From a virus (lineage: Duplodnaviria; Caudoviricetes): 25,025 nt of DNA. Where the stretch lies: positions 1 to 25,025 of IMG/VR virus record IMGVR_UViG_3300010362_000102; one strand, 5' to 3'. Positions 961-23,031 of this stretch are shown here, piece by piece (positions within the stretch are counted from its first letter, which is position 1; every line of letters starts with the position of its first letter). The position numbers and the translations under genes are program-made. The notes under the pieces are model-generated. The model was not told where the DNA came from. It saw nothing but the letters and a program-made list of their open reading frames with translations, and searched no databases.

Positions 961-2967
961 GTCGAACGGGATCTGGTATTCCTTTGCGTCCGGGTCCACC
1001 CAGTAGACACTCAGCGCCAGGTTCGGACCGGCCTCCTCGGTCTTGACCTTGTGCGCGTTGTAGATCCCCTCAGTCACCCAGTCCTCGTATCCTCCGTGCG
1101 ATCCGGCCTGGAGCATCGCGGTCTGGCCCTCCCGCGAGTCATGTCCCTCGTCCATCCGCAGGATCCGGACATCGAAGTCCCGGGGCTGGATCCCGATCGC
1201 CTTGGCCATCTTGGAGTACTTGTACTCCTTGATCCGACGATTGCCACCGCCGTCGGACCACTCCACCTCGATGGTGTCCTCGAACCCGGTGTCCGGATCT
1301 ATGGTCCGCCCCTGATAGGCGGTCCAGCCCACCACCTGGTGGACCTCGGCGTCATCCAGCTCAGCGGTCCACCGGCGACCGGACTCATCGGTCTCCGTCA
1401 GCTCGTTCCGGTTCGAGGCGATCACCCAGTCGGCCATGTCCTGTCGTTGTTCGTTGAAGGCACCCTCGGCCTCGCCGATCACCTTGCTCAGATTGGGTGA
1501 GAAGTAGACACCGCGGTTCAGCTCCACCTGACCACTGCGCCAGTTCAGCTTCTCCGGCTTCACCACCGCGTAGACCGGGTACTCGTGACCGTTGTCGTCC
1601 TGAATCTTGAGCACCCGCCGGAAGATCGAGTAGCGCTTCGGCGGCGTGTACTCCTGCGCGGCCCGCGCCATCGACATCGCGGTCTGATCCATCTGCATCT
1701 GCATCTGCGGGGTGATCATCGACATCATCGCCGCGCGCCGCTGCTCCGGAGTCATCTGGACCTTCCGCTCGGCCTCCATCGCCTGGCCCTGCTCCATGGA
1801 CAGTCCACCGCCCATCGACAGCTTCGGCCCCATCGACAGCTTCCCGCCCATCGAGAGCTTGCCGGCGCCCATCGAGAGCTTGCCCTGTCCCATCGACAGC
1901 TTCGGCTCCTCCTCCGTGGTCTCGATGATCGGCGTCGAGATCACCGGCTGCTCCCGCTCCTTGAACCGTGGCCCGGGACGTTGCGCCGCCCGCGCTCCGG
2001 ATCGCCGGGAGAACCGCCCCGGGTTCTCCGGGTCGCCACCCCGAGGATGCTCCCGTGGATCCCATTCCGCCTTGGCGATCACGAGGCGCTTGGTGAACCG
2101 GTGCTCCAGCAACCTGACCACGCACCGGCAGTTCGGGTGCAGGCCCGGGGTCCAGAACTCTCCCTGCGAGGTCTTGAACCGCTCATTGACCCCGACCTTC
2201 TGGCCGTGCAGCGGCGCGCACACCGAGCAGGTCCGCTCGTCCTTCGCGGTGATCCAGACCTTCTCCGCCTTCTCGCTCAGCCGGCCCTTGTCCTGCAGCC
2301 ACATCCAGGCCAGCTGCTTGGACTGCTCGTCGATGTTGTGCTCCTCCTGCTCGGCCAGCTTCCTGGTCCGGGTGGTGAACGCCTTGTCGATGTAGGCCCT
2401 GGCCTTGGCCTTCAGCGGACGAGGCAGCACGTCGGACACCGGAGTGTCGAACTGCTTGGCCCCGACATAGCCGCGCATCTGGCGTGGTGACAGTCCGTAG
2501 GCGTCCAGCACCCGACCCGCGGCGGCCTTGGCCGGCACCCTCCGGTTCACCATGGCGTTGAAGCCCTCCGCCAGGCCCTCCCGCGAGGTGACGTGGAAGT
2601 ACTCCCCGATCTTCTCGGCGTGCTTGTCAGCCAGGTCGTAGAGCACGCTCATCGGCACGTCTCCGGCGTTCGCGCGCCGGTAGGCGTGGTAGTAGGCGTC
2701 CGCCATGATCGGCGCGGAGATCTTCCGGAACCGCCAGAACGCGGCCTGCCAGGCCAGATCCGCGATCCGGACTAGCTGATGGTGGGTGGGCTCGGCGATC
2801 CCGGCCAGCTCCTGTCGCATCTGCCGGACCATGGCGACCCTGGTCACCGCCAGGGCTGCCTCCAGCGCCTCCGCCGGCGAGCCCAGGAACTCCCCAGCCC
2901 GCGGGATGTCCCGGACCCGCAGATCGGTGGGATGGAATCCCAGCTCGACGTACGGCGCGGTGGTCAT
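958..2967 (-). CDS. MuF-family (SPP1 gp7/Mu gpF-like) head morphogenesis protein with C-terminal extension, 669 aa
   Basis: KVWITAKDERTCSVCAPLHG...PGLHPNCRC is the MuF signature. It lies between portal and protease, with roughly 380 aa after the MuF core. Confidence 0.85.
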   Translation of the reverse strand: MTTAPYVELGFHPTDLRVRDIPRAGEFLGSPAEALEAALAVTRVAMVRQMRQELAGIAEPTHHQLVRIADLAWQAAFWRFRKISAPIMADAYYHAYRRANAGDVPMSVLYDLADKHAEKIGEYFHVTSREGLAEGFNAMVNRRVPAKAAAGRVLDAYGLSPRQMRGYVGAKQFDTPVSDVLPRPLKAKARAYIDKAFTTRTRKLAEQEEHNIDEQSKQLAWMWLQDKGRLSEKAEKVWITAKDERTCSVCAPLHGQKVGVNERFKTSQGEFWTPGLHPNCRCVVRLLEHRFTKRLVIAKAEWDPREHPRGGDPENPGRFSRRSGARAAQRPGPRFKEREQPVISTPIIETTEEEPKLSMGQGKLSMGAGKLSMGGKLSMGPKLSMGGGLSMEQGQAMEAERKVQMTPEQRRAAMMSMITPQMQMQMDQTAMSMARAAQEYTPPKRYSIFRRVLKIQDDNGHEYPVYAVVKPEKLNWRSGQVELNRGVYFSPNLSKVIGEAEGAFNEQRQDMADWVIASNRNELTETDESGRRWTAELDDAEVHQVVGWTAYQGRTIDPDTGFEDTIEVEWSDGGGNRRIKEYKYSKMAKAIGIQPRDFDVRILRMDEGHDSREGQTAMLQAGSHGGYEDWVTEGIYNAHKVKTEEAGPNLALSVYWVDPDAKEYQIPFD
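1794..1902 (-). repeat. In-frame tandem repeat encoding (KLSMG-x1-2) x5 plus one degenerate copy
   Basis: Plus-strand unit cccatcga(c/g)agctt at 1811, 1829, 1847, 1868 and 1889. The peptide reads KLSMGQGKLSMGAGKLSMGGKLSMGPKLSMGGGLSME. Confidence 0.9.
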
Positions 2968-5900
2968 CAGGCTCCCGGCCAGACCTTGTGCTTGGCCGCG
3001 GCCTGGTTCAGCTTGTCGATCCAGGGCTTCATCGTGTCGGTCTCGTTGAAGGCGGCGAAGTCATTGTTGCTGAGGATCGTCGATCGGTTCTGCTTCCACA
3101 TCGCGGCCACGTTCCGCACCGCATCGCTCTCCTCCGGATCCTCCCCCTCGCGCTCCATCCGCTCCGCGACCGCCTGCGCCCAGGCGATCTGCCGGTCCAC
3201 GTTCACCTTCGGCTTAGCCTGCTCCTCCGAGGTTGGCGTCGGGTTGGTCTGCTGTGGCATCGCCGCATTCTTCCGCGCCGTCCGATCAGACTCGTTCATC
3301 TGGGTGAGCAGCGCCCGAGATCGCTGCAACAGCTCCATCTGGTCCAGGATCGCCTCCGGGTTCTCCCGCAGGCTCTTCTTGCCCTCACCCAGTCCGGGCG
3401 AGCGTGGATCGACTCCGAGATCCTCCAGATCCTGGGTGGTCAACCTGCTCGGATCGGCCTTCAGGTTGTTGTACATCTGCCGCAGCGCCCGGTGCTCGGC
3501 CTCGAAGTCGGCCTCGGACATCTGGCTGTACACCAGCTCCGACTTGATCCCACGACGGGACTTACGATCGATCCGATCCAGCTCCCGGCTCACCAGCTTC
3601 TTGTCCGCGCCCAGCTTGTACGGATCCTCGGTGAACGTCGGAGCCTGCTTCGGATAGATGCCCGCAGCGCTCTCCCGGTCGAACGGACGACGATCACGAT
3701 GTCCGATCGCGGTCTCCCACTTCCGCTTCAGCGCATAGTCATCGAACCCAGCCAACTTGGTGTACTGGTCCGCCCACTCCGCGAACTTGCGCTGGCCCTC
3801 CGGTCTGCGCAGATCGTCCGCGGTCATCGCTAGCGCCTCGGCGACCTTGCCCTTCTGCGATGCCTCGTCCAGGTTGACTCTGGCGTGCTGCTGAAGCTCC
3901 AGCGCAGTATCGACGATCGACTCCTCGATCTTGGCCTTGGCGTTCTCCTCACGGCGCTTCTGGTGCACGTCGTTCTTGCCCCTCGCGACACCGGCGCCGA
4001 CACCGGACTCCTCGGTCTCGGCAGGCCGCGGGCCGGTAGGCTGACGACCACCCTGGTAGTCGGCCTCCCGAGCCGAGAACTTGCCGCCCATCTTGGTGTA
4101 CTTCGGGGTCTGCGCTCCACCGAACAACCCGGCCGCCGCGGCCGATGGCCGGTTCCGACCCGGCTCCACGTAGCCCAGGTCCCGCTCGGTGTCGATCTTC
4201 TTCTCCGCATCCCGGTTCGATGCGTACCGGGTGGTGATGTAGTACGGGAACTGCTCGGCCAGCGCGAACAGCGCGGCTCGGTAGCCCTCGGAGTTCAGTC
4301 GGAACCTGGTCTCCTTCTGGTCCATCAGGTCGTCGTAGACCTGGCCCCGGATCTTGTTCCGCTCACTCTCGTTGGCACCGGCGGCTCGGGAGTTGATGAT
4401 CACTTCGGCCCGCTTCTCGTCCTGCTCGGAGATGTACGGGTTCTCCTTGAACTCCTCGATCCGCTCCAGGATCGCCTCCTGGATGTCGGCCCGTCGCCAG
4501 CCCGGACCGCTCATCTCCTCCTTGACCTCGTTCTCGATCGCCACCCGCATGTCCGGGTCGATCTCACCGCGCTCCACCTGCGCGGACTGCACTGCATCCA
4601 GCAGCTGCTCGTAGCGCCGGGTCATCCGCCGAGCCTTGTCGTTGTGTCGCCGGCCACCCCGGAAGTCCGGCTCGAAGGTCATCGTGTAGGTGCCCGACCG
4701 CGAGGTCACGGTGACCTGACGGGCTCCGCTGATCAGTCCGGTGTAGATGTCCTCCGCGGTCAGCCCGCCAACGGAACGGGTCCGGATGTACTCGCCGCCC
4801 TTCAGCGCCTTCAGGTTCTTCAGGTTGAACGGCAGGTAGTGGTCGTCCCCATAGCCCACCGCCTGGGTGGTGATCTGACCGTCGGCGTTGATGATCACGC
4901 CCTCGGACGGCGGAGTGTTGCCAGCCGCCAGATGCAGCTGGTACAGCCCCTTGTCCGGAGCCCGACCACCCCTCTTCCGGGTGGTGCGCAGGTAGTCCAC
5001 CACGTTCCGGCGACCGATCTCCCGCTCGGCCCACTCCGGAGCCCGCTCCGCCAGCGCGGCCCGACGCTCCGCCATCCGAATCAGGTTCTGTGGTGCACCT
5101 GTGCTGACCGCGACCCCGCGAGTGGGACGCTGCCGGGCTCCGGCCCGTTCGATCTCCGGCTCCGGGGCCGGACCGTACTGCTTGCCCTGCTCCACGCCCT
5201 GGCCGTAGGCACGCACCAGCGCCCGGTCCGGGGTCTTCTCGGTGCCCCGGTACCGGTATGCGGTCTTCCGGGCGGTGGGACCAAGCACCGCCTCCGCCTG
5301 CGGACCGGCGTTGCCAATGATCTGGGCGAACTTGCCGGCCATCTGGGTCTTGGATCCCTCCGGACCCAGGGTGCTCAGGAAGTCCCCGGTGGCCGAGAGC
5401 CGGCCGTAGAGCTTGGCGTTGGAGGCCTTGTCGTCCTTCCCGGACTCCAGCCAGCTCCGGGTGAAGGCACCACCGGCACCACCCTCCACGGCGTTGATCT
5501 GGGCCACCTGCTGGGGGTTCAGCGTCCCACCCAGCGCGGTGGCCAGCCCGAACGCGGCCCCACCAGCGGTCAGCGTGGTGGGCTTCGCGTCCGCTCCGAC
5601 CAGCCGGAAGCTGGGATCGGCCAACAGCTCCACCGGCGGCTTGCTGCCGACGTGCAGCTGGGTGAAGTCCTTGCCGTTCCGGTCCCGGAAGTGCAGCATC
5701 ACCGACTGGTTGCCACTGCCGCCGGTGGACTCCTTCACCGTGTCCAGGAAGTTGGCCAGCTGTCGATACTCGTCCTGGAACCGGACCCGGTCCTCCCTGC
5801 TCAGCTGGATCCCGTTGTGCTCCTTGGGAGTCTGGATGCCCAGGATCTGACGCCCGGTCTTGCCGCGCAGCAGCTCCTGCTGCTGGTGAGAGATCTTGGT

Positions 5901-6590
5901 CCGGAACCGTCCCGAGGACGGATCCCGGCGGAAGTCCTCCTCCCGCCACTGGTAGCCGTACCGCTGGGCGGCGCCGATCTTGCTGACCGGCTCCAGGCGT
6001 CGCTCCAGCAGCGCGATGGCCTGCGCGTAGCCGATCGCCTGGTCCCGGTCGTAGCCCTTGGCCACCATCCGCAGATGCGCCTGCTTCAGGTCCCCGACCT
6101 GCTTGCCGATCACCTGGTTCAGATGCCGTTGCAGGGTGCCCAGGTTCTTCTCGACGGTCTCCTCGAAGTAGTCGCTGACCACGACGTGGCAGAACATCTC
6201 CGCGGTGTCATCGTCCATCTTCATCACCAGGTCGAAGGCACGCTGCGCGGCCTCCTGATTGAAGTCCGGATCGTCGGAGACCGGGACCAGCATCTTCTTG
6301 ACCTGGCCCTTCTTCGGTGCACGCTTCCGCGGAGCCAGTTTCTCCAGGTCCCGACGCTTGATCTGCGGCATCTGGTTAGCCAACGCACCGCCGATGGTGC
6401 CGATCGCCAACGGCTGCAGCCAGCCCTTCGCACTCTTCGTGACCCGCTCCGGCGGCTTGCGGTACTTCCCCTTCTTCTTCGCCGTCCGGATCATCGCGTT
6501 GCTCTCGGCGGCGAACTTCTGGGCCCACCCCTCACCCTGACCGGCCTTCCAGTTGACGTACCGACGCTGCGCCTCGCTCCTGTACGGCAT
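2967..6590 (-). CDS. Large head-module protein (1207 aa), probable internal virion/ejected protein, with a degenerate JAB/MPN-like segment
   Basis: Long ORF whose stop overlaps the MuF start (TGATG), located between portal and MuF. N-terminus MPYRSEAQRRY, an RRDPSSGRF motif, and the segment EGVIINADG...LKGGEYIRTRSVGGLTAEDI. Function is inferred. Confidence 0.7.
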   Translation of the reverse strand: MPYRSEAQRRYVNWKAGQGEGWAQKFAAESNAMIRTAKKKGKYRKPPERVTKSAKGWLQPLAIGTIGGALANQMPQIKRRDLEKLAPRKRAPKKGQVKKMLVPVSDDPDFNQEAAQRAFDLVMKMDDDTAEMFCHVVVSDYFEETVEKNLGTLQRHLNQVIGKQVGDLKQAHLRMVAKGYDRDQAIGYAQAIALLERRLEPVSKIGAAQRYGYQWREEDFRRDPSSGRFRTKISHQQQELLRGKTGRQILGIQTPKEHNGIQLSREDRVRFQDEYRQLANFLDTVKESTGGSGNQSVMLHFRDRNGKDFTQLHVGSKPPVELLADPSFRLVGADAKPTTLTAGGAAFGLATALGGTLNPQQVAQINAVEGGAGGAFTRSWLESGKDDKASNAKLYGRLSATGDFLSTLGPEGSKTQMAGKFAQIIGNAGPQAEAVLGPTARKTAYRYRGTEKTPDRALVRAYGQGVEQGKQYGPAPEPEIERAGARQRPTRGVAVSTGAPQNLIRMAERRAALAERAPEWAEREIGRRNVVDYLRTTRKRGGRAPDKGLYQLHLAAGNTPPSEGVIINADGQITTQAVGYGDDHYLPFNLKNLKALKGGEYIRTRSVGGLTAEDIYTGLISGARQVTVTSRSGTYTMTFEPDFRGGRRHNDKARRMTRRYEQLLDAVQSAQVERGEIDPDMRVAIENEVKEEMSGPGWRRADIQEAILERIEEFKENPYISEQDEKRAEVIINSRAAGANESERNKIRGQVYDDLMDQKETRFRLNSEGYRAALFALAEQFPYYITTRYASNRDAEKKIDTERDLGYVEPGRNRPSAAAAGLFGGAQTPKYTKMGGKFSAREADYQGGRQPTGPRPAETEESGVGAGVARGKNDVHQKRREENAKAKIEESIVDTALELQQHARVNLDEASQKGKVAEALAMTADDLRRPEGQRKFAEWADQYTKLAGFDDYALKRKWETAIGHRDRRPFDRESAAGIYPKQAPTFTEDPYKLGADKKLVSRELDRIDRKSRRGIKSELVYSQMSEADFEAEHRALRQMYNNLKADPSRLTTQDLEDLGVDPRSPGLGEGKKSLRENPEAILDQMELLQRSRALLTQMNESDRTARKNAAMPQQTNPTPTSEEQAKPKVNVDRQIAWAQAVAERMEREGEDPEESDAVRNVAAMWKQNRSTILSNNDFAAFNETDTMKPWIDKLNQAAAKHKVWPGA

Positions 6591-7508: not shown

Positions 7509-7521
7509 GGCTCATCCCTTC
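7506..7521. repeat. 16-nt exact direct repeat (copy 2)
   Basis: catggctcatcccttc, identical to 6588-6603. Confidence 0.85.
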
Positions 7522-9356
7522 CTGGGTGGCTTCGGCGGCTGCTTCTTCGCGGTCTTCGCCGGCACCGGACGGCCGTACTTCTGCTTGTCCCGCATCGCCG
7601 ACGCGGTCAGCCTGGCCGAGGCGAGGGCGCTCCGGTCCTTCATCCTCATCGCCTCCTTGGTCCGCTTGTGGTCCCGGTTGGCCATCGTGTCCGCGAGCCG
7701 CATCTTCTCCTTCTCCCGGCCGTGCGCGGCGGTGGCGCTCTTGTCCTGGGCGGCCAGCAGCTCCAGCTGCCGCTGGTGCTGGGCCAGTGCGGCCGGATCC
7801 TCGGGCGGCGGAGCGTTCATCATCTGCTGCTGGGCCACCTCCTGCTGAGCCATCTCCGGGGTCGGCTGCTGGGCCTGCAGCTCGGCCTGCTCCGGGGTGT
7901 AGCCCTGGGCGGTCATCTCCGCCTTCTGCTGCATCCCGATCAGCTCCATCTGGCTCTGGCCGTATTCCATCGCCTGCTGCTGGGTGTACATGGCCCGCTT
8001 GTAGTCCACGTCCTCGTCGGTCATCTCCGGCAGCCGGGCGATCTCGCGCACGTACTTCTCCAGCTCCGGGTCCGGGAACCACTGCATCCCGGCACCACCG
8101 GTGGCCGAGATGAACGAGGCCAGCTGGGCCAGGTCCGGCGGGTCCACGTTGGTCGGCTCGAACCGGGGCAGCTGGTCCAGCTTCCAGCCGTTCACCGCGA
8201 ACAGCCGAGGCACCGCGTACCGGTTCAGAGTGTCCGCGATCGCCTTGGTGATCGCGTTCAGCGCGGCCCGGAAGATCCCGGTCTTGTCGGTGTGCAACGA
8301 GTAGCTGCCGGTCTGCTCGTGCCCGACCAGGATGAAGTCGGCCAGCACGCTCATCAGGATCCGCTGCTCGTAGCGCTGGATGATCGAGTTGGTGTCGAAC
8401 TGCCGGGTGCCCCCACTGCTCATCAGCTCGAAGTCGAACAGCGGCTGCTTAGTGTCCGGGTCGTACTGGACCGGCAGCACCAGACCCTCGTTCTCGTCCC
8501 GGCGCACCCCACGCACCATCTTCCGGAAGGCGTCCACGGTCTTCGCCTGCGGGGTGCCCTTCTGCGCGGTCAGGTAGTCCGCGGGCACCTTGCCCACCGG
8601 CATCCCGGCCAGGTCCCGCTCCACGCCGATCGCCTCGAACTCCTCCAGTCGCTTCTTGAAGTACCAGGACCGGTACGCGGTGCGGAGCAGGGACACGCCC
8701 TCCGGGTTGCCCTTGGCGATCGAGGTCCGGAACAGGACCGACTTCTCGATCGGGATCACCGTGGTCTGGTACCTCGGTGGCGCCATCTGCACCATCGCCC
8801 GGACCCCGCCGGTCTCGTCGAAGGACCAGCGCAGCATCGTCTCCTGAGCCCGGATCGGCATCTTCCGCCAGCCGATCAGCCCGTCCTCGTGCTTGCTCCG
8901 CTTCTTCGGATCCTTCTGCCAGGGGCCCAGCCGGCGCTTGTAGACGATCTCGTGCCAGCTCCAGCCGTACGGGAGCATGGACAGCACCTCGCCGATGAAG
9001 TCGTCCCAGGAGTGGCTCATGTCCTCCATGCAGCTCTCCAGGAACTCCTGGGCCAGCACCCCCTCCTCGGTCTGCTCGGCGGGCAGCACCTTCCACTCCA
9101 CCTCGCGGATCAGCTTGTCGATGCTGAACAGCAGCGCCCCGCACATCGAGTCGTTGGCGGACATCTCCCGGTAGACCCGGACCGCCTTGCGACCCCGGAG
9201 CGCGGGCAGGAACTCCTCGTCGACGTACCCGGAGACCCGCTTGACCCCGGTGACCCCGAGCTCGTCCATCGGGCCGACGCGCTGTGGGATCTCGTCCCCG
9301 GCGTTGTCCTCGTCCCAGGTGGAGATGTCGCCGGCAGGGAGCTTGATGTCTGCCAT
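7512..9356 (-). CDS. Portal protein (DUF935/Mu gp29-like), 614 aa, with a Gln-rich then basic C-terminal tail
   Basis: Immediately downstream of TerL. Motifs EEFLPALRG...VYREM, LSMLPYGWSWHEIVYK, GNPEGVSLLRTAYRSWYFKK..E..AIGVERDLAGMP and GSYSL are typical of this portal family. Confidence 0.88.
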   Translation of the reverse strand: MADIKLPAGDISTWDEDNAGDEIPQRVGPMDELGVTGVKRVSGYVDEEFLPALRGRKAVRVYREMSANDSMCGALLFSIDKLIREVEWKVLPAEQTEEGVLAQEFLESCMEDMSHSWDDFIGEVLSMLPYGWSWHEIVYKRRLGPWQKDPKKRSKHEDGLIGWRKMPIRAQETMLRWSFDETGGVRAMVQMAPPRYQTTVIPIEKSVLFRTSIAKGNPEGVSLLRTAYRSWYFKKRLEEFEAIGVERDLAGMPVGKVPADYLTAQKGTPQAKTVDAFRKMVRGVRRDENEGLVLPVQYDPDTKQPLFDFELMSSGGTRQFDTNSIIQRYEQRILMSVLADFILVGHEQTGSYSLHTDKTGIFRAALNAITKAIADTLNRYAVPRLFAVNGWKLDQLPRFEPTNVDPPDLAQLASFISATGGAGMQWFPDPELEKYVREIARLPEMTDEDVDYKRAMYTQQQAMEYGQSQMELIGMQQKAEMTAQGYTPEQAELQAQQPTPEMAQQEVAQQQMMNAPPPEDPAALAQHQRQLELLAAQDKSATAAHGREKEKMRLADTMANRDHKRTKEAMRMKDRSALASARLTASAMRDKQKYGRPVPAKTAKKQPPKPPRKG

Positions 9357-9457: not shown

Positions 9458-12346
9458 TCATACTGTCAGGTCCAACTCGTCCAGGGTCTGCTGCGACTTG
9501 TTCTCCACGCTGCCGACCACCCACTGCCCGGGCTTCCGCTTGGCGTCCTTGTTGTGCTTCATCTCGTCCTCGATCCAGGTCGGGTCGTTGTTCCCGGCCA
9601 GCACCACCGGGATCGCCGGCACCGCTCGCTTGGACACCGCCCGCCAGACCAACGCCATCGAGCACACCTCGTCCGGCAGATGGAACTCCTTGCCCCGGGA
9701 GTAGATCTGCTCCACCGAGCAGTTGTGCACCACGATCCCGTTGGCGAAGAACTCGTGGGCTCCCTCGACGGTGATGTCGTAGACCTTACGCACATCATCA
9801 GGAGGACTACAGTAAACAACGTGAGCGCTCGTGTAACCATCGACCGGCAGTACTTCCTGGACCGCGTGATCATCGACCAGAACGGATGCTGGCTGTGGCA
9901 GCTCTCCATAGACCGCCTGGGCTACGCCCGGATGCGACTGTGGAAGCAGCCCTCGCAGATCGCCCATCGAGTCGCCTACCGGACCATGGTCGGACCGATC
10001 ATCCACGAGCTCGATCACACATGCCGGGTCCGGCACTGCGTCAACCCCGACCACCTGGAGGATGTCACCCACGCCGAGAACGTCCGGCGCTCTGACATCG
10101 CGCTGGGGATCAGGTCCGAGAAGACCCACTGTCCGCTGAGCCATCCCTATGCCGGCGAGAATCTGGTGATCACCGAGGGCCGGCGACGGTGCCGCACCTG
10201 CATCTCGTACAAACGCCACATCGCCTACCTGAAGCGCCTCGGCCCGAACCCACCCGCGACCAGTCGCCACCGAATGGTCTGGGGTCAGGAGCAGTTCATG
10301 GCCATCGCACGTACGAAGGCGGCTGACCCGACGCTCACCGTTACACGTGGTACTGGTAACTTTCCGCCAGCCCTGACGAGTCATGGCATAGTCACCGACC
10401 TGGACTTGCTCAATCGGTACGTCGCCGCGAAGGGTCCATACGAGTGAGCCCTCGCTCACGCAGTACAGGTGGTTCTTGTAGAACACCGGGATCCGGGGCA
10501 CCCGCCACTTGTCGTTCTCCACGCTGGAGATGTACTCGGAGAGCATGTTGTCCCGCTGCGCGCCGGTCATCAGGAAGCCCCGGGCCCGCCGGTCCACGTA
10601 GTCCGCGACCACCGCGCCCAGCCCGGTGGCATCGTGGATGCCCTCCGCGTGGTAGGCCTTCATCAGGTCGTTGAACACCCCGATCATCACCGGGTAGGGG
10701 TGCCGGCGCATCCGGGTCCAGTGCACCACCTTGCACGGGAAGAAGGTGACATCGGCGACCGTGATCACCGTCCAGTCCACACTCTGCGCCCAGTCCGCGG
10801 CGATCACGTACTCCCGGTCCTGCTTCGGGTCCTCGAACCGGTAGTCCTGGCGCTCCTTGATCACCTTCTGCTTGATGGTGTCCTCGGGCAGGCTGAACAT
10901 CCGCTCCACCGAGGCGGTGTCGAAGGCGCGGTTCCCGATCGACGGCTCGCCCAGGTCGTACTCGACCCGCCACATCTCGGCCGGGATCTCCAGTCGCTTC
11001 TGGGCGATGGTCTCCTCATCCAGCCAGCCGTCCACAGGATTTGCGGTGTCTTTGTAGCAGTTGTGTACCACCACGCCCTCGGCCACGAACTCGTGCGCGC
11101 CTTCCACACCGAGGTCCCAGACCGGGGTAAGTTCGTATCCGTGTTCACCAACTGCATCGACTGGCCGGGTACCAAACGAAACGGCTACGGCCTCAAGCAC
11201 ATCACCGAGCGGAACGGTCCAGCCAACACCTCCACCAACGCACATCTGTGGGTGTGGGAGCGAGTCGTAGGCCCAGTCCCCGAGGGCCTCCAGAGTGACC
11301 ACCTGTGCCGGAACCGTGGCTGCGTGAACCCGGAGCACATCGAGTTTGTGACCCCATCCGTCAACAAGGCGCGCGCGTGGCTGTTCCAGGAGCGCAAGAT
11401 CTCCTGCGGGAAGGGACACGAGTTCACTCCGGAGAACACCTGGATCCGTCCCGGGCGCGGTCACCGCGTGTGCCGCCAGTGCAACGGCATGCGCCCAGCC
11501 ATCGGGGACGGCCACCTGGTGATCGGGGGTGAGACGAAGGAGTCGCTTACCGATCCGGAGCGTGAGCGTCTGTTTCTCACCCATGAAGGTGACGTGCTGC
11601 ACTGGACGCCAGCCCTGGCGCGTGAGTACGAAGTCCGCATCCGTGACTTCCTCGACCGGAACTTCACCCCGCGCCGTCAGAACGTGAGTGCCTGATGCGA
11701 CGCACCACCGGAAGATCTTCTCGTCCCGCTCCATGAACCGCTCCTGGACCACCGCGAATGTCTTGTCCGGGTACTGCCAGGTGGAGGTCATCGCGGTCAT
11801 CGGCTGGATCTTCTGGCCCTGCCAGTTCTCCTGCGGCATCGGCTGGCCCAGCGAGGCGTCGAAGATGGCCAGGTCCATCTCGTCGATCTCGTCCAGCAGC
11901 AGGCTCGGCGGGTGCGGACCGCGGACCGTCTTCTGGGACGCGGTCAGCGGCATGATGATCGCCTTGTTGGTGAGTCTGATCCGGGTCGCGGTCTCCTCCC
12001 GGATCAGGTACTTCGGGGCGTGCTCGGACTCCCAGGCGTTGCGCATCGTGTTGTGGATGTTGATCGACTGGTTCAGCGAGCCGCCGACGATGTTCACATC
12101 CGAGCCCAGCACCGCGGCCTTGGTCAGCCCCAGGATGGACATCAGCCGGCTCTTCCCGGACAGGCCCCGGGAGCCGTGCATCAGGATCGACGGCATCCGG
12201 TTGAAGTAAGCCGCGGCGAAGGCGTCGAACGGGGCGTCATGGTCGCTGCACACCTTGTGCCGGGGGATGGTGATCCCCCACAGGGTCCGGACCAGGTGGT
12301 AGAGCTCGGAGTCGGTCCTAGGGCCGCGGTCCAGGATGATGCTCAC
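9458..12346 (-). CDS. terL: Terminase large subunit precursor (962 aa) with two inteins; predicted spliced product 500 aa
   Basis: Walker A-like GSRGLSGKS, Walker B LLLDEID, motif III-like MTST, and nuclease motifs VIAADWA, HDATGLG and HLPDEVCSMA. Sits upstream of the portal. 962-215-247=500 aa of extein. Confidence 0.92.
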   Translation of the reverse strand: MSIILDRGPRTDSELYHLVRTLWGITIPRHKVCSDHDAPFDAFAAAYFNRMPSILMHGSRGLSGKSRLMSILGLTKAAVLGSDVNIVGGSLNQSINIHNTMRNAWESEHAPKYLIREETATRIRLTNKAIIMPLTASQKTVRGPHPPSLLLDEIDEMDLAIFDASLGQPMPQENWQGQKIQPMTAMTSTWQYPDKTFAVVQERFMERDEKIFRWCVASGTHVLTARGEVPVEEVTDADFVLTRQGWRPVQHVTFMGEKQTLTLRIGKRLLRLTPDHQVAVPDGWAHAVALAAHAVTAPGTDPGVLRSELVSLPAGDLALLEQPRARLVDGWGHKLDVLRVHAATVPAQVVTLEALGDWAYDSLPHPQMCVGGGVGWTVPLGDVLEAVAVSFGTRPVDAVGEHGYELTPVWDLGVEGAHEFVAEGVVVHNCYKDTANPVDGWLDEETIAQKRLEIPAEMWRVEYDLGEPSIGNRAFDTASVERMFSLPEDTIKQKVIKERQDYRFEDPKQDREYVIAADWAQSVDWTVITVADVTFFPCKVVHWTRMRRHPYPVMIGVFNDLMKAYHAEGIHDATGLGAVVADYVDRRARGFLMTGAQRDNMLSEYISSVENDKWRVPRIPVFYKNHLYCVSEGSLVWTLRGDVPIEQVQVGDYAMTRQGWRKVTSTTCNGERRVSRLRTCDGHELLLTPDHSVATGRGWVRAEALQVGDVAFVRDAGAAPSPALGDHQILAGIGMAQRTVGLLGPDPQRDVRAPDVLGVGDILQVVGVDAVPDPACVIELVDDRSDHGPVGDSMGDLRGLLPQSHPGVAQAVYGELPQPASVLVDDHAVQEVLPVDGYTSAHVVYCSPPDDVRKVYDITVEGAHEFFANGIVVHNCSVEQIYSRGKEFHLPDEVCSMALVWRAVSKRAVPAIPVVLAGNNDPTWIEDEMKHNKDAKRKPGQWVVGSVENKSQQTLDELDLTV
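9808..9813 (+). promoter_or_regulatory. Putative -10 element TACAGT for the antisense HNH of intein 2 (7 nt before GTG)
   Basis: ggaggac TACAGT aaacaac GTG(9821), in an AT-rich patch. An AGGAGG at 9800-9805 also lies upstream but is 15 nt from the GTG. Confidence 0.55.
9821..10447 (+). CDS. HNH homing endonuclease encoded antisense within intein 2 (208 aa from GTG 9821)
   Basis: GCWLWQ...GYA...AHRVAY...ELDHTCRVRHCVNPDHLEDVTHAEN (HNH_3-type) plus KTHCPLSHPY..EN...RRRCRTC (Zn-binding module). This is the 3' part of track ORF 9422..10447; the start choice is inferred. Confidence 0.85.
   Translation: MSARVTIDRQYFLDRVIIDQNGCWLWQLSIDRLGYARMRLWKQPSQIAHRVAYRTMVGPIIHELDHTCRVRHCVNPDHLEDVTHAENVRRSDIALGIRSEKTHCPLSHPYAGENLVITEGRRRCRTCISYKRHIAYLKRLGPNPPATSRHRMVWGQEQFMAIARTKAADPTLTVTRGTGNFPPALTSHGIVTDLDLLNRYVAAKGPYE
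11128..11133 (+). promoter_or_regulatory. Putative -10 element TAAGTT for the antisense HNH of intein 1 (7 nt before GTG)
   Basis: gggg TAAGTT cgtatcc GTG(11141). No Shine-Dalgarno, and the same geometry as in intein 2. Confidence 0.55.
11141..11695 (+). CDS. HNH homing endonuclease encoded antisense within intein 1 (184 aa from GTG 11141)
   Basis: NCIDWPGTKRNGYG...AHLWVWERVVGPVPEGLQSDHLCRNRGCVNPEHIEFVTPSVN plus [13 protein letters not shown]...RVCRQC. This is the 3' part of track ORF 10469..11695; the start choice is inferred. Confidence 0.85.
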   Translation: MFTNCIDWPGTKRNGYGLKHITERNGPANTSTNAHLWVWERVVGPVPEGLQSDHLCRNRGCVNPEHIEFVTPSVNKARAWLFQERKISCGKGHEFTPENTWIRPGRGHRVCRQCNGMRPAIGDGHLVIGGETKESLTDPERERLFLTHEGDVLHWTPALAREYEVRIRDFLDRNFTPRRQNVSA

Positions 12347-15495: not shown

Positions 15496-15939
15496 TCAGT
15501 TCCCACGAGTGCGACGACACTCTCGGCAGCGACGGTACTGATGTCCGTTCGCGCGAGTCGTCCAGATGGTGTTCTCGGGCGTGAACTCGTGATTGTGCTT
15601 GCAATGCGTTCGCTCGGCCCAGTACGAGCGCCTCCTGACCATCATGTCCGCAGTGTTGTCCGCTGGAGTACCGAGTCGCAGATGAGCAGGATTGCAGCAC
15701 GGACGGTTGTCGCACGAGTGCAGCAGCCAAGCTCCGGCTGGGATGGAATCCTCGCCGTAGGTGTGCAGCCAAGCAGCTCGCACGGCCGTCGTCATCTTGC
15801 CGTGGAATGTGGTGGTTCCGTACCCATGGGTGCTGGGAGGCCCGGTCCACAGCCAGCAGGCATCCGGTCCGCCGCTCTGGTCTACCCGATCCCAGAACTT
15901 CTTGCCCCAAGCGCCCTTGCGCCCGTTCTTGTTCGTCAC
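15496..15939 (-). CDS. Free-standing HNH homing endonuclease (147 aa)
   Basis: FWDRVD...ACWLWTG...GYG...[23 protein letters not shown] plus [14 protein letters not shown]...RRCREC. Codon usage is more AT-rich than in neighbouring genes. Confidence 0.9.
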
Positions 15940-20725: not shown

Positions 20726-21133
20726 CTAGACCACCCTCTGCCGCGCTTTGCGCGCCCTGATCCGAGCATTACGGCAGATACGACATCGCCGTCCGCCGTA
20801 TGGCTCGATGATGAGGTTGTGACCTTCGTACGGATGATTCTGTGGACAGTGCGTCTTGTTCTTGTTCGAGGCTGGCGTCAGCGCCAGATGCTGCGCCCTA
20901 GTGACTGGTTGCAAGTGATCCGGATTGCAACATGCTGGAAACTCGCAACGGTGATGTAGTTCCTTATCCGGAGGCACCGCACCTTTCGCATCGACGTAGG
21001 ACAGGATGTGCGAGTACTCACTCTTGCCCTTGATGCGAAAACGTCCGTACCCCTTGGACTTGTATGCAGTCCACTCCCAGCAACCATCCGCACGCTTGTT
21101 TACCTTGGCCCAGAACCGTTCGGGTAGTGTCAT
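20726..21133 (-). CDS. Free-standing HNH homing endonuclease (135 aa from ATG 21133; the track start at 21154 is also in frame)
   Basis: ERFWAKV...GCWEWT...GYGRF...ELHHRCEFPACCNPDHLQPVT plus KTHCPQNHPY...RRCRIC. Visibly lower GC than the flanks. Confidence 0.9.
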   Translation of the reverse strand: MTLPERFWAKVNKRADGCWEWTAYKSKGYGRFRIKGKSEYSHILSYVDAKGAVPPDKELHHRCEFPACCNPDHLQPVTRAQHLALTPASNKNKTHCPQNHPYEGHNLIIEPYGGRRCRICRNARIRARKARQRVV

Positions 21134-21140
21134 GCACCCC

Positions 21141-21146
21141 ATAATA
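21141..21146 (-). promoter_or_regulatory. Putative -10 element TATTAT, 7 nt before the HNH ATG
   Basis: Minus strand: caac TATTAT ggggtgc ATG(21133). Confidence 0.6.
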
Positions 21147-21153
21147 GTTGCCA

Positions 21154-23031
21154 TCAGGTGATCCTGACCGCGATCAGAGGCACGAAGTTCAGGATCCCGG
21201 GACCGGCCGCCCAGCCCAGCCGCTGCACCAGCGAGCCGATCGAGGTGGGCGGCTGCCCGGACACCTTGCCCGGGGTGCTGGACAGGAACACGGTGCCCGG
21301 CAGCAGGCCGGTCTGGTAGGCGTTGTAGCCAGTGAAGTAGACCTTGGCCTCGTCGTTCACCGCGTAGTCATGCATCACGTAGCCGTGGCCCTCGTACCGG
21401 GACGCGGCGTTCGCCCTGCGGGCCCGGAAGTAGCCGCCGCTGCTCCACACGTTGACGATGTCCCCGGCGCTCAACGGCTCCGAGGCGATCACCGCCTGCA
21501 CCGCGTCCTTGACCGGGGTCAGCGAGCCGTCGCTGATCCGCTCCCCACTCATCCAGTCCCGGGTGATCTTGGCCGCGGACATGTCGTCCTGGGTGTCATC
21601 GGTGAAGTACTTGCGCACCCAGTCGTTGTCCCTCAGCTCGAAGACCCGGGTGATCTTGTCCCCGTGCAGCCCGGAGGTGGAGGCGTTCGGAGCCCCGGTC
21701 GCGACCTCGTTCACCTCGTCCCACTCGCCCCAGTAGCCGTCGGTGGAGTCACCGTCGAAGTACCGGCCCAGGTCGTCGGTCCGCTCGATCAGCATCCCGT
21801 CCGCGCGCCACACGTCGCCGTGGTTCGGGTTCACCACCCGGGGGTAGAAGGACGCGGTGCCGACCGGTGCCAGTGCGCTCACCCAGGGCCGCCCCTGGTC
21901 CGTCCAGGTCGGGTCCAGCTGCAGCGGGCTACCGGCAGCGGTGCCGATCTCGGTGTCGGTGGCATCGCACCAGACGATCTCCAGGTACACCCCGGCCCCG
22001 GATCCGGTGACCAGGGAGCAGAACACGGACACCGTCCAGATGTTCCCCTCGGCCGCCGGCTGCCTCGGCTCCCAGACCAGCCAGTGCGCCCCGGAGCCGG
22101 AGTTGGCCAGCTCGGCCACCTTCAGCCCGTCGATCGCCGACGGTGCGGTGACCACGCTCAGGCTGGCCCCGACCGTGCCCCAGTCGGTGTCGTCGATCTC
22201 GAAGGACGGGTTGCTGCAGACGTTGGTCCGCTCCCGGGTCCGGGTGAACCAGATCGAGCCCTCGTTCCGGGACACCTGGTACTCCACCACGATCGGCTCG
22301 CCGGTGATCGGGTCGACCTCGTTCTTGTACACCGTGTAGGTCAGATCGTCCGGACCCGGCTCGTAGTCGCTCATCGAGACCCGGCCGTCCGCGGTGTCCG
22401 CGGCGTTCTGGGCCGAGTAGGCCACCGCGTTGGTGTTCTCCACCGCCAGGTTGGTGGCCGCGATCGCGTTCTGGTTGGCCGTGATGTCCGCCGCGTTCTG
22501 CGCGGTCTGCGCGTCCTGGATGTCCTCCCAGTCCAGGCCGTTCCAGCGATAGGTCCGGTTGCCCTCCTCGCCCCGGATCCACAGGTCCCCGACCATCAGC
22601 TCCGAGCCGGGCGGGATCACGTCCCCGATCGGGTTGCCGTTCTCGTCCACGTCGGTGCGGTAGGTGTGGATGCCGCCCACCGCGGCACTGGCCTCCCACT
22701 GCCCGGTGGTGGCGTCCCAGACGTAGAGCGCATAGTCGTGGCCGGTGTCGTACCAGACATCGCCGGTGTTGTACCCGGAGCCCGGCGGCATCGTCGACCC
22801 GACGTAGGTGGCCGACCCGGTACCGCCCCGGATCTCGATCCAAGCCCCGATCTCCTCGTCGTAGATGGACAGGGTGCCCAGGTCCTTGCGGTACACCAGC
22901 TGACCGGGCCAGGCCGCCTCCACCAGGTCCGGGGTGGGCGTGCCCGGGTCCACGTCGAAGATCTCGACGTAGGTGGACTCCACCGGAGTGCGCTGACCAA
23001 GCCTGGGGGACTGTGCCTGGTCGTACACCAT
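21154..23031 (-). CDS. Minor tail/virion protein with a carbohydrate-binding-module-like domain (625 aa)
   Basis: GDVWYDT and GDLWI repeats, a short coiled coil, TNVCSNPSFE (CBM-like start), YFDGD, and a C-terminal ASEPLSAGDIVNV domain. Confidence 0.75.
   Translation of the reverse strand: MVYDQAQSPRLGQRTPVESTYVEIFDVDPGTPTPDLVEAAWPGQLVYRKDLGTLSIYDEEIGAWIEIRGGTGSATYVGSTMPPGSGYNTGDVWYDTGHDYALYVWDATTGQWEASAAVGGIHTYRTDVDENGNPIGDVIPPGSELMVGDLWIRGEEGNRTYRWNGLDWEDIQDAQTAQNAADITANQNAIAATNLAVENTNAVAYSAQNAADTADGRVSMSDYEPGPDDLTYTVYKNEVDPITGEPIVVEYQVSRNEGSIWFTRTRERTNVCSNPSFEIDDTDWGTVGASLSVVTAPSAIDGLKVAELANSGSGAHWLVWEPRQPAAEGNIWTVSVFCSLVTGSGAGVYLEIVWCDATDTEIGTAAGSPLQLDPTWTDQGRPWVSALAPVGTASFYPRVVNPNHGDVWRADGMLIERTDDLGRYFDGDSTDGYWGEWDEVNEVATGAPNASTSGLHGDKITRVFELRDNDWVRKYFTDDTQDDMSAAKITRDWMSGERISDGSLTPVKDAVQAVIASEPLSAGDIVNVWSSGGYFRARRANAASRYEGHGYVMHDYAVNDEAKVYFTGYNAYQTGLLPGTVFLSSTPGKVSGQPPTSIGSLVQRLGWAAGPGILNFVPLIAVRIT

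Follow-up and report, generated by a model that had tools for sequence, protein, structure and literature searches.

In a 25,025-nt phage fragment (IMG/VR record IMGVR_UViG_3300010362_000102; this whole stretch of DNA, as analysed, is called the window below), the gene for the terminase large subunit (terL) is interrupted by two inteins, and the strand opposite each intein encodes an intact HNH endonuclease. Both nuclease genes, here called HNH1 and HNH2, are codon-aligned to terL and lie wholly within their inteins, start and stop codons included. In the intein centre it is the HNH frame that is under selection, at the two ends that of the intein, and alleles of terL empty at one or both insertion sites are present in related phages. 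We consider it likely that the inteins splice out of the terminase precursor, while the nucleases are made separately from leaderless transcripts arising inside the inteins and nick intein-free terL, with the result that the insert is copied in.

Two inteins with nuclease genes on the opposite strand

Both inteins belong to class 1. Intein 1 (11060..11704, minus strand; 645 bp, 215 aa, terL residues 215–429) is inserted between Trp and Cys at site a, at the end of the ATPase part of the terminase, and intein 2 (9722..10462, minus strand; 741 bp, 247 aa, terL residues 629–875) between Tyr and Cys at site b, late in the nuclease domain. The two are 33% identical. An earlier note on this DNA, drawn up from the sequence alone, had described complete splicing motifs in both, and this is confirmed: each has Cys1, TPDH in block B, the block F Asp, the terminal His-Asn and Cys+1, and each matches TIGR01443 above its cut-off. 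An AlphaFold model of intein 1, built from a 22-row alignment, has a predicted local distance difference test score (pLDDT) above 90 for 94 residues, located at the two ends. A Foldseek search with this model gave 21 matches at E ≤ 0.001, those listed being solved intein or Hint structures. The intervening residues 83–182 (11159..11458, minus strand) score mostly below 50 and are predicted to form an unstructured passenger linker, in agreement with the earlier description of a featureless centre. Evidence for the Hint fold by structure concerns intein 1 only, and the assignment of intein 2 comes from Pfam and NCBIfam matches. A peptide-word search of viral contigs for relatives of intein 1 gave 30 candidates, none of which was confirmed.

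The profile search that the earlier note had proposed separates the two strands cleanly. The terL frame matches Hint/intein families only and no nuclease family, while both plus-strand open reading frames (ORFs) match Pfam HNH_3 (PF13392) above the cut-off of 24.8 bits. HNH1 (11141..11695, plus strand; 184 aa, GTG start) does so at 11240–11368 (E = 7.1e-13, 48.4 bits) and HNH2 (9821..10447, plus strand; 208 aa, GTG start) at 9962–10087 (E = 1.3e-08, 34.8 bits); the PHROG 826 HNH family is matched at E = 1.6e-33 and 1.4e-43, respectively. The two proteins are 29% identical to one another. Both keep the catalytic His and two Asn residues, and the ligands of a C-terminal Cys/His zinc module can be read from the sequence at C89/H93/C111/C114 in HNH1 and C104/H108/C124/C127 in HNH2. 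The claim that intact, codon-aligned HNH_3 genes with a Cys/His module stand opposite the inteins is therefore upheld by Pfam, PHROG and individual residues. Where the note had confined these frames to the intein centres it was mistaken: they continue antisense across almost all of the N-terminal splicing region, ending at TGA stops antisense to intein codon 4 (HNH1) and codon 6 (HNH2). Neither intein is a canonical bifunctional intein, in which the nuclease is in frame with the splicing domain, and neither is a mini-intein encoding no homing nuclease, since an intact HNH_3 gene lies opposite each.

HNH2 has 972 homologues among 1036 candidates and is matched by 473 cultured-phage records, the best of those listed being 38–48% identical, whereas a sequence search of the PDB with HNH2 gave no match. 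The phages concerned are mostly those of Mycobacterium, Gordonia, Streptomyces and Arthrobacter, so the host of the phage in the window is likely actinobacterial.

An open antisense frame is no evidence by itself because such frames are cheap in a genome of 65% GC content; the codon-aligned antisense frame has no stops in six of the eight long gene segments of the window. This is what speaks for regarding the plus-strand ORFs as chance shadow frames of a GC-rich gene, an idea to which we give almost no credence. Shadow frames would not be expected to produce HNH_3 and PHROG matches down to E 1e-43, nor the 972 homologues of HNH2. The GC content at third codon positions (GC3) also runs against it, falling in the terL frame from 0.95–0.97 in the exteins to 0.64–0.65 in the inteins (that is, from about 0.96 to 0.65) while the HNH cores reach 0.84–0.86 in their own frame.

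The strand-specific comparison of substitutions that the earlier note had called for gives the same answer. In all eight pairs of related inteins, which are mostly distant, uncorrected and partly built from shared sequences, the ratio of nonsynonymous to synonymous change (pN/pS) in the intein centre is 0.23–0.76 in the HNH frame versus 1.04–1.43 in the intein frame, selection there tracking the HNH frame. In the N-terminal splicing region of the same pairs, the intein frame has a ratio of 0.13–0.75. A close relative of intein 1 from sequencing run X2, represented by two contigs at about 3x depth that are 88–95% alike to intein 1 (26 differences listed), has nine changed codons in the centre, of which seven are synonymous for HNH and none for the intein; in the splicing region, one of 12 is silent for HNH versus six of 12 for the intein. 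Together, the profile matches, the pN/pS pattern and this synonymous bias refute the shadow-frame explanation.

The tails of the two ORFs, which run opposite the N-terminal splicing regions, differ in what can be said of them. In the last ~70 residues of HNH1 the changes favour the intein frame, and the frame would be open by chance with P = 0.78. A functional HNH1 tail was rejected on these grounds, and the segment is probably read-through. The 81-residue tail of HNH2 has many residues kept in L015 and L109, the same-site (site b) homologues of intein 2, and its antisense pN/pS is 0.83–0.87 versus 1.05–1.25 in four other distant pairs. Its identity lies above a codon-resampling null, although a close pair with an unconserved tail also beats that null. 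Over 80 columns of this tail, 10 are invariant only in the antisense frame versus 22 only in the intein frame, and the splicing region shows no deficit of silent changes (36/80 versus 70/157, p = 1.0). An Atlas look-up of the tail returned only unnamed matches, all below 0.9. Double coding of the HNH2 tail with a folded splicing domain is possible on these comparisons.

Related inteins and a putative shared start signal

Other inteins were sought with a DNA pattern that couples the antisense of the intein C-terminus to the HNH motif, with the frame not fixed. The pattern matches the window twice, did not occur in 100 shuffles, and was found at six loci in viral, 12 in metagenome and one in genome collections. 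In 15 of these 19 rows an HNH gene lies antisense to an intein and codon-aligned with it, so that 11 other distinct inteins share the layout; L116 and L117 are the window's own record, and L112 and L115 were dropped as chance pattern matches, having no intein frame and lying out of register. The inteins found in this way are inserted at four different sites in terminase genes and at a single one in a head-maturation-protease-like gene (L114:804-1508 and L121:804-1508, plus strand), and one of them belongs to a Micrococcales metagenome-assembled genome (L123). The HNH stop lies inside the intein in 12 of 12 complete inteins. A second, looser pattern with longer spacing, for which no positive control was run, gave no match. 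The terminase of L107 has a second intein upstream of position 1077 (plus strand), which ends just before the Walker A GKS and contains an in-frame HNH-like motif.

The earlier note had placed start, promoter and stop of each nuclease gene inside the intein. This is right for start and stop, while the promoter part is reduced to a bare TANNNT box: a sigma-70 promoter scan returned no sites and no convincing −35 box is visible by eye. TANNNT is the actinobacterial −10 consensus. The boxes, at 11128..11133 for HNH1 and 9808..9813 for HNH2 (both plus strand), each stand 7 nt before the start codon, the HNH2 distance being the same in L015, and are predicted to be −10 elements of leaderless transcripts. 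The signature TANNNT-N6/7-ATG/GTG in frame, its spacer having been widened from 7 to 6–7 nt after the pattern-hit loci had been inspected, precedes 10 of 13 distinct nested genes, several of which are related and so do not count as 13 independent cases, compared with two of 80 free-standing HNH genes and none of 437 background windows. Among the ten nested genes that were not used to frame the idea, seven have it. The per-gene shuffle P of the signature is 0.003–0.024. Boxes and stops alike fall on rare codons of the terL strand, as counted in nine gene segments of the window. The HNH1 box overlies a Leu CTT (3/306) and the HNH2 box a Cys TGT (1/26), and both HNH stops need TCA (2/271 Ser codons). 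Leaderless GTG starts in mycobacteria have been discussed in the literature (PMC11855218). There is also an AGGAGG at 9800–9805 (plus strand), 15 nt before the HNH2 GTG and upstream of the TANNNT box, which is too far away for a usual ribosome-binding site.

All 87 HNH matches in the 80 best HNH loci are free-standing genes. On a quick-search tree of 93 rows and 110 columns, in which four of 90 branches are well supported, the nested HNHs do not fall into one group (five changes), a picture that fits single as well as repeated capture. The likely origin of the arrangement is the insertion, in reverse orientation, of a free-standing HNH gene of actinophage type into a mini-intein. Among free-standing HNH relatives with a GC content of at least 0.60, the codon-aligned antisense frame is open in 26 of 45 cores versus 1–5 of 45 for the other four frames. 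At high GC that antisense frame is thus usually stop-free, which would explain both the fixed frame of the nested HNHs and how the intein frame could survive such an insertion. This control provides a simple reason for captures landing in this one antisense frame.

Other frames are also used, as a wider set shows; it comprises 71 distinct inteins retrieved with the splicing motifs of intein 2 and is biased towards relatives of that intein. In 48 of the 71 (L037-L104, L206-L234) an HNH_3 gene lies in frame 3 of the same strand (49 frame-3 ORFs were scanned, two short ones being omitted); our local HNH profile did not pick up such frame-3 genes in L025-L104, and Pfam detected them. The frame-3 loci have a median GC content of 0.49 (0.29–0.68), with 14 of 48 at 0.55 or above, and the 11 antisense loci range from 0.52 to 0.65. 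Many flanks of the frame-3 inteins resemble the end of the terminase nuclease domain. Other arrangements include a 393-aa intein (L088:1589-2464, minus strand) whose antisense DUF559/Vsr-like ORF has zinc ribbons and resembles the anti-sense VSR type already published, and an intein (L252:992-1879, plus strand) in which frame 2 of the intein strand encodes an HNH (PF01844). In-frame nucleases are found as well, namely HNH_3 in L249, LAGLIDADG in L235 and L225, and weakly LAGLIDADG in L219. A 319-aa intein (L237:983-1855, minus strand) has a 291-codon stop-free antisense frame that is not codon-aligned and has no Pfam match, and L060 carries two inteins (1571-2563 and 2576-2956, plus strand) four extein residues apart.

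We offer one generalisation tentatively, and with less than even confidence in it as a whole. It holds that in a large lineage of inteins from uncultured phages the HNH is by rule a separate, self-promoted gene, that the frame it uses depends largely on GC content (antisense where GC is high, as in the window, and frame 3 of the intein strand where it is lower), and that the site-b nuclease gained a truly double-coded 81-residue tail. Were this so, many phage 'mini-inteins' of 210–335 aa would have full mobility, and the timing of their homing would be uncoupled from the host gene.

Proposed homing and its alternatives

In the mechanism that we favour, the terL message would be translated through both inteins, and these would then excise themselves, passenger linkers included. 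The HNH genes would each be transcribed from the opposite strand off the −10 box inside their intein and translated leaderless. The nuclease would then nick the intein-free terL of a co-infecting relative, and repair would copy the intein in. The motifs, the fold and the essential nature of the host gene argue for splicing, and the TANNNT box 6–7 nt before the start suggests transcription. Nicking seems more plausible than double-strand cutting because known phage HNH homing enzymes nick DNA (PMC3428280), and patchy spread points to homing. The earlier note's picture of a spliced-out linker and a separately expressed nuclease accords with the pattern of selection, the fold of intein 1, the box and the empty alleles; its suggestion that the architecture is undescribed fails, as discussed below.

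Patchy spread is seen in a set of 24 viral relatives retrieved with the middle extein (53–85% identical), in which site a is empty in all 24 and site b in 23. L004, one of the empty alleles, agrees with the site-b flanks for 15 bases on either side. The sole carrier, L015, has a 247-aa intein at site b whose antisense HNH is 47% identical to HNH2 and stops at the same position. One contig of run X1 omits the 741 bases of intein 2, and two X2 contigs join across intein 2 with short sides; these X1 and X2 contigs represent related phages rather than the population of the window. No joint across intein 1 occurs among the contigs listed. In a tree of 32 middle exteins the window falls in a clade with 100/100 support alongside 15 rows that are empty at site b, and placing the three site-b carriers in one group is rejected by the approximately unbiased (AU) test (p = 3.2e-05). 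This patchy distribution fits homing. The residue at position +1 of site b in the empty alleles (within L001-L024) is Ala in 14 of 23 and Cys in nine of 23. Ala at +1 would not permit splicing and could make these alleles unavailable to the site-b intein.

The main alternative is that the HNHs are expressed but act as free-standing homing nucleases sheltering in the intein, which cut away from its site or elsewhere, the intein moving by co-conversion. Their nearest relatives are indeed free-standing, both in the 80 best loci and among the cultured-phage matches listed, and the nested HNHs do not form one group on the poorly resolved tree. The HNH cores of the two site-a carriers are only 35% identical, and I-HmuI and I-HmuII are known to cut intron-plus and intron-less alleles alike (PMC3428280). 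We nevertheless think this explanation improbable: at site b the intein has kept its HNH in three distant hosts, and in the window start, box and stop are all internal to the inteins, as is the stop in 12 of 12 complete inteins, which would befit one mobile unit.

Returning to homing by the nested nucleases themselves, several observations weigh against it, beyond the distance of the pN/pS pairs, the thin coverage of the X2 relative, the empty sigma-70 scan and the late widening of the spacer. The leaderless signature is absent from three of the 13 nested genes (L105, L109 and L111). Patchy spread can also stem from repeated loss, and grouping the two site-a carriers together is not rejected (p = 0.128). 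The DNA pattern detects intact HNH motifs only, so decayed copies go uncounted. The model of HNH2, from a three-sequence alignment, is of low confidence (pLDDT 51.6) and matched nothing in a fold search.

A further reading is that the HNH genes are silent or dead passengers here, the inteins now behaving as mini-inteins. In its favour, HNH1 begins almost at its first conserved Cys, without the ~20 N-terminal residues of its relatives, and it lies on a long branch. Against such decay stand the intact catalytic His/Asn residues and zinc ligands of both proteins, the synonymous-biased change in the HNH frame of the X2 relative, and the dependence of box and stop on rare codons, and we regard dead passengers as very improbable.

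The terminase setting and known systems

The virion genes of the window are on the minus strand. The terminase large subunit precursor (9458..12346, minus strand) is 962 aa long, or 500 aa without both inteins, and has terminase matches to PHROG 9 and 2. Its N-extein (11705..12346, minus strand) is the ATPase domain, in whose sequence Walker A- and B-like motifs can be recognised. The 199-aa middle extein (10463..11059, minus strand) is assigned as the RNase H-like nuclease domain and has a weak Terminase_6C match, and the C-extein (9458..9721, minus strand) contributes 87 aa plus the stop. No cultured-phage record covers 80% of the terminase, and four records match a Hint piece only. Profile searches identify the portal protein gene (7512..9356, minus strand) directly downstream on the same strand. 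Two genes beyond the portal, a 1207-aa ORF (2967–6590, minus strand) has no Pfam or PHROG match and no intein. Two free-standing HNH_3 genes in the window (15496–15939 and 20726–21154, both minus strand) are 29–39% identical to the nested ones and bring the HNH genes in the 25 kb to four.

Proximity to the terminase raises the question of benefit to the phage, because HNH proteins adjoining terminase genes assist packaging in other phages (PMC3592412). The nucleases could have been taken over by the phage, and serve less to spread themselves than to help packaging or to attack co-infecting relatives without the inteins, and a free-standing HNH of the HNH1/HNH2 family does lie directly upstream of an intein-free terL, on the same strand, in L004 (1974-2327) and L003 (225-578, plus strand). 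Most relatives, however, are without either intein, a Pfam search with HNH1 and HNH2 gave no match to the packaging-type HNH family PF01844, and the same layout recurs in the head-protease-like gene of L114 and L121. We consider the chance of such a takeover to be slimmer still than that of dead passengers.

If the HNHs work as we propose, inteins annotated as immobile mini-inteins would be selfish elements that are still active, and phages would contain more homing-competent inteins than present counts indicate. With a promoter inside the intein, the nuclease could be made at another time than the late terminase precursor, and the convergent transcript could affect terL expression. The literature searched contained no experimental test of expression or homing for antisense intein nucleases; given the small size of the two inteins and the natural empty alleles among their relatives, both processes should be directly assayable.

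The surprise is limited in that the general layout is already in print. Among 784 actinophage inteins, Gosselin, Arsenault and Gogarten distinguish four non-canonical types, namely in-frame HNH, anti-sense LAGLIDADG, anti-sense VSR-like and frame-3 endonuclease VII-like (bioRxiv 10.1101/2025.01.02.630785). They credit the anti-sense LAGLIDADG type, with hosts including Synechocystis DnaX, a Chloroflexus SpoVR-like protein and an actinophage minor capsid protein, to Gorbalenya 1998 (the first antisense case) and Gogarten 2002, list terminase among the hosts of non-canonical inteins, and warn that such inteins are misread as mini-inteins. The earlier note's suspicion of an undescribed architecture therefore falls, given these published antisense LAGLIDADG and VSR-like nucleases. 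For an antisense HNH inside an intein, we found no description in the literature searched, which took in few subscription journals and, for this preprint, did not extend to Supplemental Table 1.

As in the window, the antisense types of Gosselin et al. are full inteins with a centre that has no fold of its own and lies opposite a separately encoded nuclease, in an actinophage-like setting, and terminase is among the hosts of their non-canonical class; a proposed origin from a free-standing nuclease is a further likeness, and phylogenetic signs of continued spread may be another. Unlike their antisense types, the nuclease in the window is HNH_3 with a zinc module rather than LAGLIDADG or VSR, and two such inteins share one gene. 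Its ORFs traverse the N-terminal splicing region, whereas the secondary ORFs described in that account typically lie outside it. The window also has a conserved −10-like box, while the words promoter and leaderless are absent from the main text of Gosselin et al.

A hidden HNH in another frame is likewise a feature of the ShiLan domain (Arsenault et al. 2025, PMC11855218), where an HNH is inserted out of frame into actinophage methylases; the host frame stays open, the start is GTG and leaderless translation has been proposed. That domain has no splicing domain, and the words antisense and reverse do not appear in the text of that paper, whereas HNH1 and HNH2 are antisense inside true inteins. 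The TerL inteins of Kelley et al. 2016 (PMC5050341) share class 1 splicing motifs, the terminase host and the logic of homing; those are all in the ATPase domain, while site b of the window is in the nuclease domain, and the inteins of the window, set against them, have no nuclease in the intein frame. The HNH_3 core is common to the free-standing actinophage enzymes of PHROG 826 and to intron-encoded nicking HNH enzymes (I-HmuI, I-BasI and I-PfoP3I), from which the predicted nucleases HNH1 and HNH2 differ in being nested antisense in a protein-splicing element. The general layout is thus known, and the HNH family and the internal promoter signal are the parts by which the window departs from the published account of antisense inteins.

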